A stretch of 32,000 nucleotides of DNA from Microcystis aeruginosa NIES-843 (GTDB lineage: Bacteria; Cyanobacteriota; Cyanobacteriia; Cyanobacteriales; Microcystaceae). Every line of letters starts with the position of its first letter. Position 1 is the first letter of the stretch. The DNA is taken from assembly GCF_000010625.1 (NCBI RefSeq), contig NC_010296.1, forward strand, positions 4,500,001 through 4,532,000. Reading direction: 5' to 3'. Below, piece after piece: positions 2,062 to 8,896 of the stretch. The notes under the pieces were generated by a model that did not search any database, was not told the DNA's origin, and saw only the letters and a program-made list of their open reading frames with translations. A program made the position numbers and the translations under genes.

Positions 2062-2846
2062 GTTACAGTAGAGCAGGAAGTCGCCTTCCCACCCCCTGCT
2101 TCAAAACCGGACTTACGACTTTCGCCGTATCCGGCTCCTGAGTAACTAGGCTACTGTCATTAGTAGAATAATAATGGGAATTATTATTTCCTTGTCTATT
2201 CAACCCTCTTGGCTGTATCCCCACCAGACAAGATTGTTGGTTTTAGGGCGTATATGACCGTTGATTGTTGCTTAGACTTCCTAGTTACCCGTCCTTTGTC
2301 AGCATATCTTTGATATTACTCAAAGCCTTGGCTTTTAAGGACATCCTCTCCCTCTATTGACTTGCGGATGGTTTCCTACTGCCCCGAACGGGCAGAGTCA
2401 ATCAGGGTTACTTCGTTCCCTATAACCATTGGTTGAACCCTTAGGATGATACTGTCCACAACAGAGTAACGGGAATGCCTTACTGATAGTGGTATGAGCT
2501 ATCAGCCCCAACTCTGTTAACTTTTGTTTCGAGCCTGTCAGCCTTTTGGCTCGTGGGTGTTGACGATGGTTAATTCGTATCTTCGCCCCAGGGCTATCCA
2601 TAGGTTCTGGCTCAACGGGTTTCTGATTTAGGCTATCAGATACCGCTTTTTTTTCCTCGCTCACTACCTCAGATGTACCAAGTCTAAAGCAGCAGGAAAT
2701 GCCGTCACTCTAGGCATCTAGAGGACAGGACTAAGGTTATTACTAACCCGCACCTGTAGGGTTATAAAGTTATCAAGGTACTACATTTACCAAGCGGCTA
2801 ATCCTCTAAACGTCTTACTGTCTAGTTTCTAGCCAACGAATCGCAC
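2062..2846 (-). mobile_element. ORF-less group II intron (no reverse transcriptase/maturase)
   Basis: On the minus strand the 5' end reads GTGCG (2846-2842). A canonical domain V lies at 2137-2104. A domain VI-like helix follows (GGAAG-GCGA-CTTCC inside AGCA/TGCT), with an unpaired A 7 nt before a terminal ..AAC near 2062. The domain IV position is a short AT hairpin. The only ORF inside (88 aa) has no RT motifs. Confidence 0.75.
2104..2137 (-). ncRNA. Group II intron domain V (catalytic hairpin)
   Basis: Minus strand reads GAGCCGGATACGGCGAAAGTCGTAAGTCCGGTTT. It has the AGC triad paired to GUU with a G-U wobble, a 2-nt AA bulge on the 3' strand, a GAAA tetraloop, and is 34 nt long. This matches the conserved DV architecture. 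Confidence 0.85.
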
Positions 2847-3080
2847 CACACCCTACACCCTACACCCCACACCCTACACCCCACACCCTACACCCTACAC
2901 CCCACACACCACACCCTACACCCTACACCCCACACCCCACCACCCCATCTCCCCATTTCCCTATCTCCCCATTTCCCCATTTCCCCATCTCCCCACACCC
3001 CACACCCCACACCCCACACCCCACACCCCACACCCCACACCCCATAACCCACACCCCATCTCCCCATCTCCCCACACCCT
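2847..3080. repeat. C-rich strand of a (GGGGTGT/GGGTGTA/GGGGAGAT)n microsatellite-like array; a short continuation lies at 2036-2061 on the other side of the intron
   Basis: Direct reading: ccacaccctacaccctacaccccacaccc...ccccatctccccatttcccc...ccccacaccccacacc. Confidence 0.9.
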
Positions 3081-3176: not shown

Positions 3177-4628
3177 ATGGAATCGGCCATGGTAGCTTCT
3201 CTATCTTATCAAAATGGGCAAAAAGCTCGATCGCATCCCCTGTTATCCTTAGCGGGTTTAATCGAATTACCGCCATCTCCCCTGTTTGGCACGGACGGAA
3301 TTCGCGGCCAAGTGGGAGAATTATTAACTGCCCCCCTAGCGCTACAAATCGGATTTTGGGCGGGACAGGTATTAAAAAATCAGGCTGGTGTCACCAAACC
3401 GATAATTATCGGTCAAGATTCCCGTAATTCCAGTGATATGTTAGCCAATGCTATCACTGCGGGTTTAACTTGGGCGGGAATAGAAGTCTGGCAACTGGGA
3501 TTATGTCCCACTCCCTGCGTCGCCTATTTAACCAGAGAAAGCGAAGCGATGGGTGGGATCATGATTTCTGCCAGTCATAATCCTCCCGAAGATAACGGCA
3601 TTAAATTTTTTGACAGCAGCGGTTTAAAATTATCCGGCACTTTAGCCGGACAGATAGAAGCGGGTTTAAGAGGCAATTTAGAATTAGCGGATAACTCAGT
3701 AAATTGGGGAAAAGCGACTTTTTGTCCCGAATTAATCCAAAAATACTATCAAGCTGTGATTGCTTCCGTCGGGACGGATATTAACCTATCGGGATTAAAA
3801 ATAGTTTTAGATCTAGCTTGGGGGGCAGCCGTTAACCTAGCACCTTTAGTATTCCAAACCGTGGGGGCGGAAGTTATCTGCCTACACGATCGAGCCGACG
3901 GCGATCGCATTAACGTTAATTGTGGTTCTACCCATTTAGAAAGCTTACAGGCGGCGGTGATTAATCAGCAAGCGGATTTAGGGTTTGCCTTCGATGGCGA
4001 TGCCGATCGAGTCCTGGCCGTGGATAGTCAAGGTAGAGTAGTAGATGGCGATTATATCCTCTATTTTTGGGGTCGTTCCCTCTTAGAAGCCGGACAGCTA
4101 CCCGATGGGTTATTAGTAGCAACGGTGATGGCTAATTTAGGTTTTGAACGCGCTTGGCAAAAACTGGGGGGTCAATTCTTGCGGACTGCCGTGGGCGATC
4201 AGCACGTTCAGGCGCAAATGTGGGAAACTGGAGCCATGCTAGGGGGTGAACAATCTGGTCATATCCTCTGCCATCATTACGGGGTTTCTGGGGATGGAAT
4301 GCAAACCGCCCTACATTTAGCGGCTTTAGTGCAGAAATCGGCGGTTTCCTTGGCTAACTTAGTCGATCATAGCTTTGTCACCTATCCGCAGATTTTACGC
4401 AATGTGCGGGTGGAAGATAGAGAAGTGCGACGTAATTGGCAGCAATGTGAACCTTTGCGGCGAGAAATCCGCAAAGCTGAGACAGCTATGGCAGAAAAAG
4501 GCAGAATTTTGGTGCGCGCTTCCGGGACAGAACCCTTAATTCGGGTGATGGTGGAAGCAGAAACCCTAGAATTAGCCAATTTTTGGACAGAAAGGCTAGT
4601 GGCAGCGGTGCGAAGCTATCTTTTGTAG
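3177..4628 (+). CDS. glmM: Phosphoglucosamine mutase
   Basis: 483-aa [12 protein letters not shown] at the N-terminus, active-site [15 protein letters not shown], metal-binding FDGDADR, and GEQSGH sugar loop are hallmarks of the alpha-D-phosphohexomutase family as seen in GlmM. Confidence 0.9.
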
Positions 4629-4639
4629 TCGATCGAGGG

Positions 4640-4900
4640 GGACAGGGATTATAATGCCCTTAGCCTAGCGTAGCAAGGGATAATTGTCACTAACCCCGCC
4701 CTAAAAGCGACGGAGCTTGCCTAGACCAATTTAGGCGACGCAAGTAGAGACTACCGCATCGAGACACAATCTGGCACAGACCTCCGAATACTTCCCTAGT
4801 TCGGATTCCCTCTCGGCTTTATTGGTAAAGCGTTGTTAGACAAGACATCTTGATTGTGTTGCGGAAAGGGACTTTAACTTTACTCTTAAGGATTATCTCC
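4640..4900 (+). ncRNA. Candidate omega-RNA (HEARO-type) of the downstream IsrB; boundaries approximate
   Basis: Non-coding stretch directly 5' of isrB in the same orientation. Nested hairpin at 4716-4744 (CTTGCCTA...TAGGC..GCAAG). Hairpin at 4784-4804 (CCGAA...TTCGG). Perfect 8-nt long-range complement between 4764-4771 (ACACAATC) and 4852-4859 (GATTGTGT). IscB/IsrB omega-RNAs are known to lie in the 5' UTR and overlap the ORF start. Confidence 0.55.
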
Positions 4901-5998
4901 ATGGCAAGAGTTCCTGTTATCTCAAAAGACGGAAAGTCGTTGATGCCCACTAAACCCAGTCGGGCCAGACGGTGGATTAAAGAAGGAAAAGCTATCGGTA
5001 AATTCAACGACTTAGGTATTTTCTATGTCCAGCTAATCGATGAACCTTCCGATAGTAAAACCCAACCGATTGCCATTGGTATTGACCCGGGTCAATTATT
5101 CTCTGGAATTGGCGTTCAATCCTCTCTTTTTACTCTTTGGAAGGCTCACTTAGAACTTCCTTTTAAACGAGTAAAAGAGCGCATGGACAATAGACGGTTA
5201 ATGCGAAGAGGACGTAGAAAAAGACGGATTAACCGCCAACTTTCTTTTAATCTAAGAGCGCATCGACAACAACGATTCTCAAATAGAAAACAAGGAAAAT
5301 TAGCTCCCTCAATCAGAGCTAATCGTCAACTTGAACTTCGCGTCGTTTCCGAACTAACCAAAATCTATCCAATTACTGACATTTACTTTGAGTATGTCAA
5401 AGCCGATGTTGATTTAACTTCCGGTAGAAAAGGAGCTAAGTCTGGAAAAGGTTTCTCGTCGGTTATGGTCGGACAGAAATGGGCAATTGAGCAACTGTCT
5501 CAATTGGCAACAGTCCATACTCGCTTTGGTTGGCAAACCTCTAATCTCAGAAAATATTTGGGACTAGAAAAGTCCAAAAATAAAGCAGAACAATCACCAG
5601 AAAGCCATGCTAACGATGGCATTGCTCTTGCCTGTTTTCAATTTTTAGATTATTGGCCATTCCACAATTATAATGGACATGGATATGATTGGAAGGGTTC
5701 TGTTAAAGTAACAAACGCTCCCTTTGCTGTCATCAAACGTCCTCCTATTAGTCGTCGTCAACTTCACCTGATGGTTTTTTCTAAAGGTGGTAAACGACGT
5801 AAATATGGTGGCTCTACCACAAGACATGGGTTCCGTAAAGGAGATTTAGTTTCTTCTCCCAAAGGAATTGGTTATATTAGTGGAGATACCGAAAAACAGC
5901 TATCTGTAAGCGATACCAATGGTCAACGATTGGGACAGATAGCTGTTAGCAAGATTCAGTTAATTCGTCGTTCTAACGGTTTAATTGTTTCTCGCTAA
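4901..5998 (+). CDS. isrB: IsrB-type OMEGA RNA-guided nickase (IscB homologue lacking the HNH domain; 'RRXRR' protein)
   Basis: Track ORF is 4850-5998; the likely start is ATG 4901 (MARVPVISKDGKSLMPTKPSRARRWIKEGKA = PLMP-type N-terminal domain). RuvC-I is IAIGIDPG. Arg-rich bridge helix is RRLMRRGRRKRRINRQ. RuvC-II is IYFEYVK. RuvC-III is SHANDGIALA. There is no CxxC/HNH insert between RuvC-II and RuvC-III. The C-terminal GFRKGDLV..GYISG region looks SH3-like, consistent with a TAM-interaction domain. Confidence 0.85.
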   Translation: MARVPVISKDGKSLMPTKPSRARRWIKEGKAIGKFNDLGIFYVQLIDEPSDSKTQPIAIGIDPGQLFSGIGVQSSLFTLWKAHLELPFKRVKERMDNRRLMRRGRRKRRINRQLSFNLRAHRQQRFSNRKQGKLAPSIRANRQLELRVVSELTKIYPITDIYFEYVKADVDLTSGRKGAKSGKGFSSVMVGQKWAIEQLSQLATVHTRFGWQTSNLRKYLGLEKSKNKAEQSPESHANDGIALACFQFLDYWPFHNYNGHGYDWKGSVKVTNAPFAVIKRPPISRRQLHLMVFSKGGKRRKYGGSTTRHGFRKGDLVSSPKGIGYISGDTEKQLSVSDTNGQRLGQIAVSKIQLIRRSNGLIVSR

Positions 5999-6005
5999 CT
6001 TATAT

Positions 6006-6040
6006 AAAGCCGCCCTCCGTTATCGCTAAAGGGCGGGTTT
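6006..6040 (+). other. Stem-loop just after the isrB stop (candidate element right end and/or terminator)
   Basis: CCGCCCT (6010-6016) pairs with AGGGCGG (6030-6036), with AAA/TTT extensions and a 13-nt loop. A related hairpin occurs at 16120-16155. Confidence 0.6.
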
Positions 6041-6056
6041 CAGACCCATTTTTTCA

Positions 6057-7784
6057 ATGACCGGACTAAGTATCGATCGCCAGAAAAAAAAGCATAAACA
6101 GGGCCAAACAAAAGCTGATAGTCCCCCGCTTAACATCAAAGAGAAACTTGCCCTCAAAAAAGAAGAAAGGCAAAAGAAACAAAAATTAACGGGGTTAATT
6201 GTTTTTGCCATTTGTGTAGCAATTTTGCTCGGATTCCCCCTCAGCTTATTATTTGATGCCAACATAGGAGCTGCAGTAAGTTTAGCCTTAATTTTAGTAG
6301 TTTTCTCCTTTAGCTATCCTCGCATGGCTCTTTGGGCATTTATTATCTATGTCCCCTTCACTGGCACTATTATCTATTGGTTGGGAGGTAGTCCAATCCT
6401 CCAGCTTAGTAAAGATATCTTTTATCTACCCGCTTTAATCGCCTTAGTTTTAGAATGTCGAAAAAAGCAATTACCGATTATTGTCCCCAAACAATTAGGT
6501 ACAACCCTATTATTAATCTTTGTTTTCTGTGTAGTTTGTCTATTAGCCGTCAATTTACAGAGACAATTTCTGCCTACTTGTGCATCTGTAGAAGGACTGA
6601 GAGTTTTCAGCAACGGCTTTTTGTTTCGGGTTCCCTGTCGGGAAAGTGAGCCTTTTCTGCAAGGAATATTAGGATTTAAAGTTTTGCTGGGTTATGTCCC
6701 CTTGATCTTCTGCACTTATTACTTAATCAAAGACAAACCGACCCTATTATTTTTTGGTCGTCTTTTAGTGACTTTAGCGATTATTTGTTGTGTTCTAGGA
6801 CTAATGCAATACTGGATGCTGAAAACCGGTCGTTGTGTAGGAACTAGAGGCCTTGTATCTGAGGCACTATTCAAAGCCAACTTAGAGGCAAGGTGTTTGA
6901 TTGGTGGGGCGTTAGTGTATAGTCCGGAAGTAAATATGATCCGCCTACCGGGTACCTTTGTTTCTCCCTGGCACTGGGCTTGGTTTTTGGTCTCTAGTGC
7001 CGTAGTTTGTTATGCCAGTGCCTTTAGTGAAATTTCCCAAAAATGGCGACTAGCAGCCCTAGTAGGTTTAACCCTAGTTTTTATTAATGCAGTGGTCTCC
7101 GGGCAAAGATTAGCTTTCTTTGCTGTACCGATGATTATTGGTCTGATGACGATTATTACGGGACAAATCGCTAACTTAAAACGATTTTTGCCGATCATTT
7201 TTGCCTCGGCTTTACTTCTAGCTATCGGTTTTTCTTTCCTTAACCCGGATTTTGTCCAACAACGCTACGATAGTGCCATCAGCCGTTGGCAAAGCAGTCC
7301 CCCCACCGCTTTTCTTCAAGAACAGTTGGATTTTGCTATCCGTAATCAGGGCGGTATTTTAGGTCGTGGACTTGGTGTGGCCACGTCTGCTGCTAGGTTT
7401 TTCGGTGATATTTCCTTTGTGGAAACCTATCATAGTAAAGTTTTATTCGAGTTGGGATACATTGGTTTTGCCTTGTACATGATATTCATGACCCATCTAG
7501 TTTATCTGGCCTTCCGCACCTATCGTTCCCTCAAAGATCCGACTCTGCGAGGTTTTGCCGGTAGTTATTGGGTTTTGCTGCTCTTTGTTGCCTATCTTCC
7601 CTATTGGTATGCCCTCGATACAGATCCTGTGGGCGTTTATTACTGGATATTTGCGGGCGTAATTTTTAGATTACCCGTGATCGAAAAACAGGAAAAAGAA
7701 GCCAAAATTCTGGCGGGGGAAACCGCCACAAAATCCTCCAAAAAGGGCTTAAATTTTAAACGCAAAGGTGTTTCTTTAGCTTGA
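6057..7784 (+). CDS. O-antigen ligase/polymerase-like polytopic membrane protein (Wzy/WaaL-type)
   Basis: 575-aa ORF with a lysine-rich cytosolic N-terminus followed by about ten or more hydrophobic segments. It sits inside a glycosyltransferase cluster. The family call is by architecture and context only. Confidence 0.6.
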   Translation: MTGLSIDRQKKKHKQGQTKADSPPLNIKEKLALKKEERQKKQKLTGLIVFAICVAILLGFPLSLLFDANIGAAVSLALILVVFSFSYPRMALWAFIIYVPFTGTIIYWLGGSPILQLSKDIFYLPALIALVLECRKKQLPIIVPKQLGTTLLLIFVFCVVCLLAVNLQRQFLPTCASVEGLRVFSNGFLFRVPCRESEPFLQGILGFKVLLGYVPLIFCTYYLIKDKPTLLFFGRLLVTLAIICCVLGLMQYWMLKTGRCVGTRGLVSEALFKANLEARCLIGGALVYSPEVNMIRLPGTFVSPWHWAWFLVSSAVVCYASAFSEISQKWRLAALVGLTLVFINAVVSGQRLAFFAVPMIIGLMTIITGQIANLKRFLPIIFASALLLAIGFSFLNPDFVQQRYDSAISRWQSSPPTAFLQEQLDFAIRNQGGILGRGLGVATSAARFFGDISFVETYHSKVLFELGYIGFALYMIFMTHLVYLAFRTYRSLKDPTLRGFAGSYWVLLLFVAYLPYWYALDTDPVGVYYWIFAGVIFRLPVIEKQEKEAKILAGETATKSSKKGLNFKRKGVSLA

Positions 7785-7789
7785 AATAT

Positions 7790-7897
7790 GGGTGTTGGGT
7801 TTTAGGGTGTTGGGGTTTTAGGGTTTTAGTGGAAATTCCCCCATTCCCCCACTCCCCCACTCCCCCACTTCCCCACTCCCCCACTCCCCCATTCCCT
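7790..7897. repeat. Composite simple repeat: a G-rich half (GGGTGTTGGGTTTTAGGG...) followed by a C-rich half (CCCCCACT/CCCCCATT)n
   Basis: Direct reading. Its translation produces the proline-rich pseudo-N-terminus of track ORF 7781-8896. Confidence 0.9.
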
Positions 7898-7900
7898 GCT

Positions 7901-8896
7901 ATGAATTTTCCCTCGATTTCTGTGATCATACCCACCTATCGACGCGAAGAGCCTCTTAAAGATACCCTCGATGACCTACTCAAACAAGATTATCCCGATT
8001 TTGAGGTATTAGTTATCGACCAGACCGCTACCCACAGCCCCGCCATACAATCCTATCTGGAAAATCTGGCTAATCAGCACAAAATTAGCTGGTATCGGCT
8101 GGATTGGGCGAGTTTACCCGGTGCGAGAAATTATGGAGTCCGTCGCACCCAAGGCGATATCGTTCTTTTTATCGATGATGATGTGCGGCTACCGGATAAT
8201 TATCTCAAAGCACATAGTGAGAATTTTGTCAAGAACCCTGAGATAGGTGTAGTGGCAGGTCGGGTATTCGATCGCATGAAATTGGGTGACTCCCAAAAAA
8301 TGGTGACAGATACCGGCAAACCCTACGAAATCGACTTTTTACCCCCCCAAGCCATGGATCCAGGCATTGCTTGGTATTACATCGATCTTGTCCACACCAC
8401 TAAACCCCAGCAGGTAATCTCGGCCCGGGGCTGTAATATGTCTTTCCGGAAGGATATATTTACGAAATACGGCATTTGGTTCGATGAACGCTTTCGTGGC
8501 AGTGCCGTGCGCGAGGAATCGGATTTTTGCTTAAGGTTACGCCAGACTCCCTATCATGTCTGGTACGATCCCACCGCTTATCTGGTTCATTTAGGGGAAG
8601 AAACCGGCGGCTGTCATGATATTAGCACTCGTTCTTTGAGTTATCAGACGACTTTTTATCATAATCACTTTCTGATGGCCCTGAAAAATCTCACTCCCGC
8701 TCAACAATTGCGACTCTACGCTAAATTATTTGATTGTCACGTTCTTGGCAATCCTCCCTGTAATAAAGGTGGTTCCCCGATTAAAATACTCTCTAGGGGA
8801 ATTTTTTATAGTTTAGGTTTTCTTGATGCTCTGAAAACTCAAGTAAAGTCCCTCTGGAATGATGGCCAAATTTATACAAAACTAGATCATCTATGA
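7901..8896 (+). CDS. Family 2 glycosyltransferase
   Basis: MNFPSISVIIPTYRREEPL...VLVIDQ...LFIDDDV is a GT2 signature. I moved the start to ATG 7901 because residues 1-40 of the track ORF are repeat translation. Confidence 0.85.
   Translation: MNFPSISVIIPTYRREEPLKDTLDDLLKQDYPDFEVLVIDQTATHSPAIQSYLENLANQHKISWYRLDWASLPGARNYGVRRTQGDIVLFIDDDVRLPDNYLKAHSENFVKNPEIGVVAGRVFDRMKLGDSQKMVTDTGKPYEIDFLPPQAMDPGIAWYYIDLVHTTKPQQVISARGCNMSFRKDIFTKYGIWFDERFRGSAVREESDFCLRLRQTPYHVWYDPTAYLVHLGEETGGCHDISTRSLSYQTTFYHNHFLMALKNLTPAQQLRLYAKLFDCHVLGNPPCNKGGSPIKILSRGIFYSLGFLDALKTQVKSLWNDGQIYTKLDHL

Follow-up and report, generated by a model that had tools for sequence, protein, structure and literature searches.

We analyzed a window of 32,000 nt from Microcystis aeruginosa NIES-843 (positions 4,500,001 to 4,532,000 of contig NC_010296.1 in the RefSeq assembly GCF_000010625.1; all coordinates below are relative to the start of this window). 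The window contains isrB, which encodes a predicted RNA-guided nickase and is carried by a mobile element. The evidence supports the view that the stretch just before isrB is the scaffold of the element's guide RNA (omega RNA), as a sequence-only reading of this DNA had proposed. The proposal now stands on the IsrB protein itself, on a match to a covariance model of related scaffolds, and on covariation that includes two pseudoknots. More precisely, it is very probable that 4686-6056 is a non-autonomous element of the IS200/IS605 type (ISC1/IsrB) and that its first ~190-226 nt (4686 to ~4873-4911) encode the omega-RNA scaffold. Going by sequence comparison, this looks clearly like a new example of an already known system, and an omega RNA is an expected feature at this place.

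Covariation in the leader of isrB

We compared the leader of isrB with its relatives, which came from a scan of one genome per species (63 loci, nearly all cyanobacterial). In an alignment of 32 homologous leaders, the consensus structure has 50 pairs, and compensatory changes were found in 40 of them. The pairings thus hold up across other copies of the element. At the paired positions, 95% of the alignment cells can pair, versus 30-45% if the partners are slid by 1-3 columns, and none of 500 shuffles reached the observed values. G-U pairs dominate three of the consensus positions, so the structure is strand-specific.

We also built a covariance model, R1, from 26 relatives outside of Microcystis. 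(The five most similar leaders, namely this window, three Microcystis copies, and locus L030, were omitted.) R1 matches 4686-4873 with a score of 156.5 bits (E = 6.5e-40, model positions 1-190), and this match defines the core of the scaffold, at the end of the element that is next to the guide. R1 has no second match in the window and none in the loci with an empty insertion site (described below). The scaffold start at 4686 and the isrB start at 4901 are on the same (+) strand, and the parts of the scaffold that follow are on this strand as well.

The scaffold opens with S1 (helix 1 of the consensus; 4686-4691 with 4746-4751), which encloses SL1 and SL2. Three of the five pairs in S1 covary, and the first pair is G-C or U-A in equal numbers (16:16). 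SL1 (helix 2; 4694-4715) has covariation at 4 of 5 pairs, and in SL2 (helices 3 and 4; 4718-4737), all five inner pairs covary. S2 (helix 5; 4754-4757 with 4861-4864) closes a large inserted domain; all four of its pairs covary and 100% of cells pair. Within this domain are S3, which is an 11-bp helix (helix 6; 4763-4774 with 4849-4860; 10 of 11 pairs covary and 96.9% of cells pair), S4, which flanks SL4 (helix 7; 4778-4780 with 4811-4813; 2 of 3 pairs covary), the 7-bp helix of SL4 itself (helix 8; 4783-4789 with 4799-4805; 5 of 7 pairs covary), and SL5 (helix 9; 4816-4831; 5 of 5 pairs covary). By eye, there is also a probable SL6 at ~4832-4848, which reads UUG/CAA here and UGGG/CCCA elsewhere; the alignment is out of register there.

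Several of these helices had been picked out from the single sequence. An 8-nt complement between ACACAATC (4764-4771) and GATTGTGT (4852-4859) is indeed present and turns out to be the core of S3. The hairpin at 4784-4804 (CCGAA...TTCGG) is SL4, and it does lie inside S3. A nested hairpin reported at 4716-4744 is present, but only its inner stem, which is SL2, covaries. The outer pairs (CTTG/CAAG, 4716-4719 with 4741-4744) have no covariation support and are deleted in several relatives. The spacer between glmM and isrB was correctly described as having no credible open reading frame (ORF): it contains only a TTG extension of the isrB frame and a 62-amino-acid antisense ORF.

Two pseudoknots join the hairpin loops. 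In the adaptor pseudoknot, the SL2 loop (ACCAAU, 4725-4730) pairs with the SL5 loop (AUUGGU, 4821-4826); 5 of 6 pairs covary, 91% of cells pair, and the variants include ACCAAU/AUUGGU versus CCUAAA/UUUAGG. In the nexus pseudoknot, the SL4 loop (UCCCU, 4793-4797) pairs with AGGGA just after S2 (4867-4871); 3 of 5 pairs covary, 98% of cells pair, and UCCCU/AGGGA, UGUCU/AGACA, and UCGCC/GGCGA are all found. Jointly, 94% of cells pair and 8 of the 11 pairs show compensatory changes, and 0 of 500 shuffles reached either the observed covariation score or the observed percentage paired. Group-B IsrB omega RNAs are defined by this combination of an SL2-SL5 adaptor and a nexus between the SL4 loop and the sequence after S2 (PMC9581776).

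IsrB and its target-adjacent motif

The isrB gene (4901-5998, + strand) encodes a protein of 365 amino acids. As judged from Pfam and from an alignment to the structure of DtIsrB (PDB 8dmb), it has PLMP, split RuvC, and target-adjacent motif (TAM)-interacting domains. Its sole match in Pfam is to RRXRR (E = 4.7e-52). The alignment to DtIsrB covers the full length of the protein (residues 2-361, E = 2e-45), while IscBs match the N-terminal part only. Neither Pfam nor the structure-sequence alignment revealed an HNH domain. The RuvC motifs IGIDPG, IYFEYV, and SHANDG are kept, and the D/E/H/D residues of RuvC are conserved.

The residues that read the TAM are also conserved. In DtIsrB, R323 and Q326 read G3 and A4 of the TAM (PMC9581776), and the equivalent arginine and glutamine are present here (GQRLGQ, versus GKRIGQ in DtIsrB). 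The TAM is NTGA/TTGA for DtIsrB and NTG for CwIsrB and DsIsrB (PMC9581776). The sequence that follows the element, ATGA, fits both NTGA and NTG.

Boundaries of the element and natural empty sites

The element spans 4686-6056 (1371 bp), with limits that come from independent copies and from nine natural alleles without the element. Homology to independent Microcystis copies begins at 4685/4686 and ends at 6060/6061, that is, after the ATGA, and the upstream flanks are unrelated. The nine empty-site alleles are metagenome contigs (L067-L075) with glmM, an identical 57-nt spacer (apart from the substitutions described below), and then ATGAC. They read ...GGGATAATT|ATGAC..., which joins 4685 to 6057. 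(An exact search pattern, with 16 nt of the guide followed by ATGAC, had 0 matches; the 9 alleles came from a gapped pattern with anchors in the two flanking genes, glmM and the one downstream.) From the occupied and empty alleles, the insertion between ...GGGATAATT and ATGA is seamless, with no target-site duplication. Together with the independent copies, the empty sites also place the boundary between the scaffold and the guide exactly at 4685|4686. Two other Microcystis strains (L007 and L008) have the insertion at the same place, beside the same glmM.

Upstream of the element, and outside it, is a co-oriented host gene for a glmM-like phosphoglucosamine mutase (3177-4628, + strand), which has all four PGM_PMM domains from Pfam. 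It is followed by host intergenic DNA (4629-4665) that predates the insertion and is unchanged in the nine element-free alleles. The sequence-only reading had drawn the structured region as 4640-4900. Its first part, 4640-4685, is host intergenic DNA that is present in the empty sites, so the span holds only from 4686 onwards.

The other, ORF-distal, end of the element is 5999-6056 (+ strand); homology between copies stops at 6056. This end has a putative subterminal hairpin (6010-6016 with 6030-6036), and SL1 sits at the opposite end. By eye, the arms of the far-end hairpin change together between clades, as in CCGCCCT/AGGGCGG versus CCGTCCT/AGGACGG. A small GC stem and a T-run (GGGTTTCAGACCC and then ATTTTTTCA; stem 6035-6047, whole 6035-6056) were scored as terminator-like in a scan. 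ATGA is directly 3' of the element in every clearly delimited copy. In the window (6057-6060), according to the copies and the empty sites, it is the TAM, the insertion motif, and the start codon plus one base of a host gene (6057-7784, + strand). We found no second copy of the element in the window by blastn, tblastn, or covariance model.

The guide and a proposed mechanism

In DtIsrB, a 20-nt guide is at the 5' end of the scaffold (PMC9581776). If we assume a guide of 16-20 nt, as in characterized IsrB and IscB systems, then flank comparison and the empty sites point to host-derived sequence just outside the element (TAGCGTAGCAAGGGATAATT, ~4666-4685, + strand) as the guide. It had been expected directly 5' of the scaffold, near or within the 3' end of glmM. 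The putative guide is indeed directly 5' of the scaffold, but it is not within glmM: it lies 38-57 nt downstream of the glmM stop codon (4626-4628). In the window, the only close match to the guide is itself. What comes after the matching sequence depends on the allele: GTCA, which does not qualify as a TAM, at the occupied site, and ATGA at the empty or excised site.

We propose that the system works as follows. Transcription would start in host DNA and run into the element, most likely as read-through from glmM or from a host promoter. At its 5' end, the RNA would carry a guide of ~16-20 nt that is copied from the host (~4666-4685) and fused to the scaffold. The scaffold would fold into S1-S4, SL1-SL5, and the two pseudoknots, and would bind the IsrB that is encoded just downstream. 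The resulting ribonucleoprotein would recognize DNA that matches the guide and is followed by the TAM ATGA, which is the junction that excision of the element would restore (4685 joined to 6057). Because it lacks an HNH domain, IsrB would nick the non-target strand. This nick would favor re-installation of the element by recombination, and hence its retention. The occupied site would be spared because the guide match there precedes GTCA instead of NTGA. There is a published model of guided cutting of the donor joint (10.1101/2023.03.14.532601), and the GTCA and ATGA found here fit it.

Two observations concern the sequences on either side of the boundary. First, the initial bases of the element (4686-4689) are GTCA here and TTCA in other clades, and in both cases the third base is the only departure from NTGA, so a single substitution would be enough to make the occupied site a target of its own guide. 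Second, none of the nine empty alleles matches the guide exactly: each has 1-3 substitutions in the 18 nt that precede ATGA. The substitutions are at positions -4, -6/-7, -10, or -16, where the three occupied alleles are identical. These substitutions could reflect escape from guided homing, or they could merely reflect strain structure, given a small sample of non-independent alleles.

Comparison with known systems

The closest known system is subgroup B2 of IsrB, which includes CwIsrB from Crocosphaera watsonii and DsIsrB from Dolichospermum. Both were active in nicking tests (Hirano et al. 2022, PMC9581776). Like the B2 systems, the omega RNA described here lies 5' of an IsrB without HNH, has both pseudoknots, lacks SL3, has a TAM of the form NTG(A), and occurs in a cyanobacterium. 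Crocosphaera loci have ~70% protein identity to ours, and their whole scaffold aligns. There is divergence in sequence, however, as in SL1, which is much shorter here than in the Crocosphaera copies.

DtIsrB (8dmb) resembles our system in the full-length alignment of the protein, the TAM-reading arginine and glutamine, the RuvC motifs, and the topology of helices and pseudoknots. However, its scaffold is 262 nt with SL3, SL6, and SL8, whereas here there are 215 nt from the element end to the AUG, no SL3, and a single 3' hairpin. The RNA of TnpB (reRNA or omega RNA) likewise combines a scaffold at a transposon end with a flank-derived guide, and TnpB cuts the excised site (10.1101/2023.03.14.532601). 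But the RNA of TnpB lies 3' of its gene and has a 3' guide and a 5' TAM. The tracrRNA of Cas9 is much reduced in comparison and works with a separate crRNA.

Close relatives of the element are found in phages. An IsrB-like gene from Microcystis, with ~207 bp upstream and 59 bp downstream, jumped into phage Mic1 at an ATGA (PMC11237433). Phages of the Ma-LMM01 type contain whole copies that are ~91% identical over 4685-6060. Like the element in our window, the Mic1 insertion and the copy with Ma-LMM01 gp171 (RRXRR) have a leader of ~207-215 bp, the ORF, and a tail of ~58-59 bp, and are located at ATGA. In contrast to our analysis, neither the report nor the annotations for Mic1 and Ma-LMM01 give an omega RNA or a structure for the leader.

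We noticed several partial or altered copies as well. Phage Mic1 has a miniature copy without the ORF (~299 bp; L065:1501-1799, or MN013189.1 23333-23631), which consists of an intact scaffold (151 bits with R1), a short spacer, and the far-end hairpin, with the ATG of Mic1_19 immediately after its end. Its S3 has compensatory changes when compared with the window copy. In phage MaMV-DL01 (L066:990-1835), the scaffold is truncated (34 bits), a 192-amino-acid ORF with an HNH-like motif (CHHCDNPKCCNPDHL) replaces most of isrB, and the far end and ATGA are kept. In Ma-LMM01, a second, partial element end (GTCACTAACCC...; L064:1441-1500) is ~25 nt upstream of the complete copy, which may be what is left of an earlier or tandem insertion. 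Finally, L004 has a ~100-nt insertion inside the scaffold (L004:2835-2936) and ATA in place of the start codon. From these sequences, decay of individual copies of the element seems to be common.

Contrary observations and alternative explanations

Several observations weigh against our interpretation. Folding of 4629-4904 gives a minimum free energy of -70.6 kcal/mol, compared to -72.5 +/- 5.2 for shuffled sequences (z = +0.36). A single-sequence fold that is no more stable than chance means that the question has to be settled by comparison with relatives. The Rfam family HEARO (RF02033) matches below its threshold, with 31.1 bits compared to a gathering score of 83 (E = 1.9e-4). In the window copy, all helices are intact save for one C.A mismatch in SL1, at 4695/4714. 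The ORF-distal end is atypical, with a G-run that is one G shorter and TTTTTCA instead of the TTTTTCG of most copies. Within the isrB region, the orthologous insertions in L007 and L008 each give a two-piece alignment to the window copy; this points to indels in the element and hints that the insertion in the window may be aging. No gene for the transposase TnpA was found in the element or among the ORFs of at least 130 amino acids in the window. A promoter scan called no canonical + strand promoter upstream of the guide.

The low score for HEARO bears on how the RNA should be classified. The sequence-only reading had termed it HEARO-class and had named a covariance-model scan as the check. 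The architecture agrees: HEARO is an IscB-associated RNA with the same order of helices, and the match, at 4686-4878, spans the full model (positions 1-211) with 4686 as its first base. The Rfam score does not, as there was no hit at the gathering threshold in the window or in 20 related loci. HEARO also differs in its partner, as our protein lacks the HNH domain that HEARO is named for. The covariance check thus comes out in favor of an omega RNA with the family-specific model (R1) and not with the Rfam model.

The lack of a called promoter bears on the source of the transcript. A TATAAT at 4650-4655 was flagged by the scan only as part of a site on the - strand. No terminator-like site was found by a scan of the + strand between the glmM stop and 4686. 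Since there is no such site before the guide and no + strand promoter was called, the likeliest source of a transcript would be read-through from glmM. IscB elements are reported to be co-oriented with the upstream gene (10.1101/2023.03.14.532601), which agrees with read-through. As for TnpA, its absence from the element and the window implies that the element is non-autonomous and that its mobility would depend on a copy elsewhere. Most IscB and IsrB elements are likewise non-autonomous (10.1101/2023.03.14.532601).

Could this be a genuine omega-RNA/isrB element that is now an inactive relic at this locus, fixed and decaying? The insertion is common to at least two other Microcystis strains, and the two-piece alignments of L007 and L008, the mismatch in SL1, the small changes at the far end, and the lack of TnpA in the window would all fit with decay. 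But the ORF is intact with all of the catalytic and TAM-reading residues, both pseudoknots and every helix other than SL1 are intact, empty alleles are still segregating in nature, and related copies have been mobile enough to occur in several phages. Overall, we think that an inactive relic is unlikely.

One reason to consider a cis-acting function instead of a guide RNA is a hairpin over the translation start of isrB. This 3' hairpin (SL7 by its position; 4882-4911, + strand) pairs ACUCUU (4882-4887) with AAGAGU (4906-4911), which is codons 2-4 of isrB, and encloses both the ribosome-binding site (AAGGA, 4888-4892) and the AUG (4901-4903). Folding, or binding by IsrB, would probably compete with translation of isrB. 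The structured region had been described as running up to the start codon; it does reach the start codon but does not stop there. Across the relatives, the upstream strand follows the choice of synonymous arginine codon (ACUCU/AGAGU, ACUCG/CGAGU, and ACACG/CGUGU). We quantified this with a register-free script and permutations. The mean helix has 5.46 bp for cognate strands and 3.85 bp for non-cognate strands, and none of 5000 permutations reached this, with relatedness among the sequences uncontrolled. RNAalifold predicted nothing for the 3' segment because MAFFT had set the upstream strand one column out of register in some rows. In addition, the sequence just before the AUG (AGGATTATCTCC) hardly varies among relatives whose proteins share ~50-96% identity with ours.

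These features of the hairpin, namely that it covaries with codon choice, covers the ribosome-binding site and AUG, and lies beside a nearly invariant stretch, are what one would expect if the conserved structure were only a 5' leader that controls the translation or stability of isrB. However, a leader is not expected to begin exactly at the end of a transposon, and the fold has the two pseudoknots of IsrB omega RNAs that were solved and tested experimentally (PMC9581776). Also, the scaffold persists in the ORF-less copy in phage Mic1, where there is nothing to regulate in cis. A leader and nothing else is therefore very improbable, and it is likely that the RNA has a dual role, as guide RNA and as cis-acting leader.

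Last, it is hardly credible that the helices are just transposon-end hairpins that TnpA reads in single-stranded DNA: although IS200/IS605 ends do bear subterminal hairpins, and SL1 (CCCCGCCC...GGGACGGGG) is similar to the far-end hairpin (CCGCCCT...AGGGCGG), a region of ~190 nt with 11 covarying helices and two loop-loop pseudoknots goes far beyond a recognition hairpin for TnpA, and, read on the opposite strand, the conserved G-U pairs would turn into A.C mismatches. SL1 may well do both, as part of the RNA and as a hairpin for TnpA.

Insertion at host start codons

Of 41 independent insertion sites, 21 have a TAM whose ATG doubles as the start codon of a co-oriented and intact host gene. 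By comparison, just 11.7% of background ATGA sites open an ORF of at least 150 amino acids (p about 7e-10). The start-codon sites include the one in the window (6057-7784), L001, L004, L005, L022, L034, L035, L041, L043, L045, L056, and L064:2873. In 5 of the 10 such ORFs that we tested, a Pfam domain begins within residues 3-25 (ThiD, CphA, CobQ, LarC, and RNase III types). For the window's locus, a reading of the empty alleles shows that this ATG is the first start after an in-frame stop, and in phage Ma-LMM01, the annotated gene gp170 starts at the ATGA. The element is thus placed between the 5' untranslated region of the host gene and its ORF. The far-end stem with its T-run comes directly before the host ATG, and we see no Shine-Dalgarno-like sequence.

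We found no mention of start-codon placement in the literature that we examined, which did not cover the 2009 paper on HEARO. That paper, by Weinberg et al., is said to describe HEARO elements that insert next to ATGA or GTGA.

As a tentative idea, which we consider possible but doubtful, host start codons may be the niche of the cyanobacterial IsrB family. The host promoter would supply the transcript, the guide would be the host's 5' untranslated region, excision and re-insertion would act as a reversible switch for expression, and the empty alleles with mismatches to the guide would be variants that escape homing.

Other features of the window

On the - strand, Rfam finds domains V and VI of a group II intron at 2062-2139 (55 bits). 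This is the only hit in the window that passes the gathering threshold, and we see no reverse-transcriptase ORF close by. There are also two tandem repeats: CCACACC is repeated 32 times at 2846-3079, just upstream of glmM, and TCCCCCAC is repeated 7.5 times at 7837-7896, at the 5' end of a glycosyltransferase ORF (7781-8896). Both repeats give rise to odd Gly/Trp-rich antisense ORFs in the list of ORFs.

Implications

The curated Rfam family misses this omega RNA, whose boundary between guide and scaffold can be fixed to the base. Beyond another example of a known system, our analysis adds this exact boundary, the pseudoknots, the hairpin over the translation start, and natural alleles with and without the element. 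For the development of tools, the system offers a compact cyanobacterial IsrB (365 amino acids), a scaffold of ~190-226 nt, and ATGA as the TAM, and it is related to the active CwIsrB.

Bloom-forming Microcystis also provides a natural test system, with occupied, empty, phage-borne, and ORF-less alleles of one element. Such alleles could allow the role of the guide RNA in the retention of the transposon to be examined in the wild. If the idea about host start codons is correct, then the host promoter would supply what an omega RNA with a 5' guide needs, which is a transcript that starts outside of the element. The host gene would sit behind the far-end hairpin and T-run, and excision and guided re-insertion could switch its expression. 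If start-codon placement is general, and has not already been described, it would tie the expression of these guide RNAs to the promoters of host genes.

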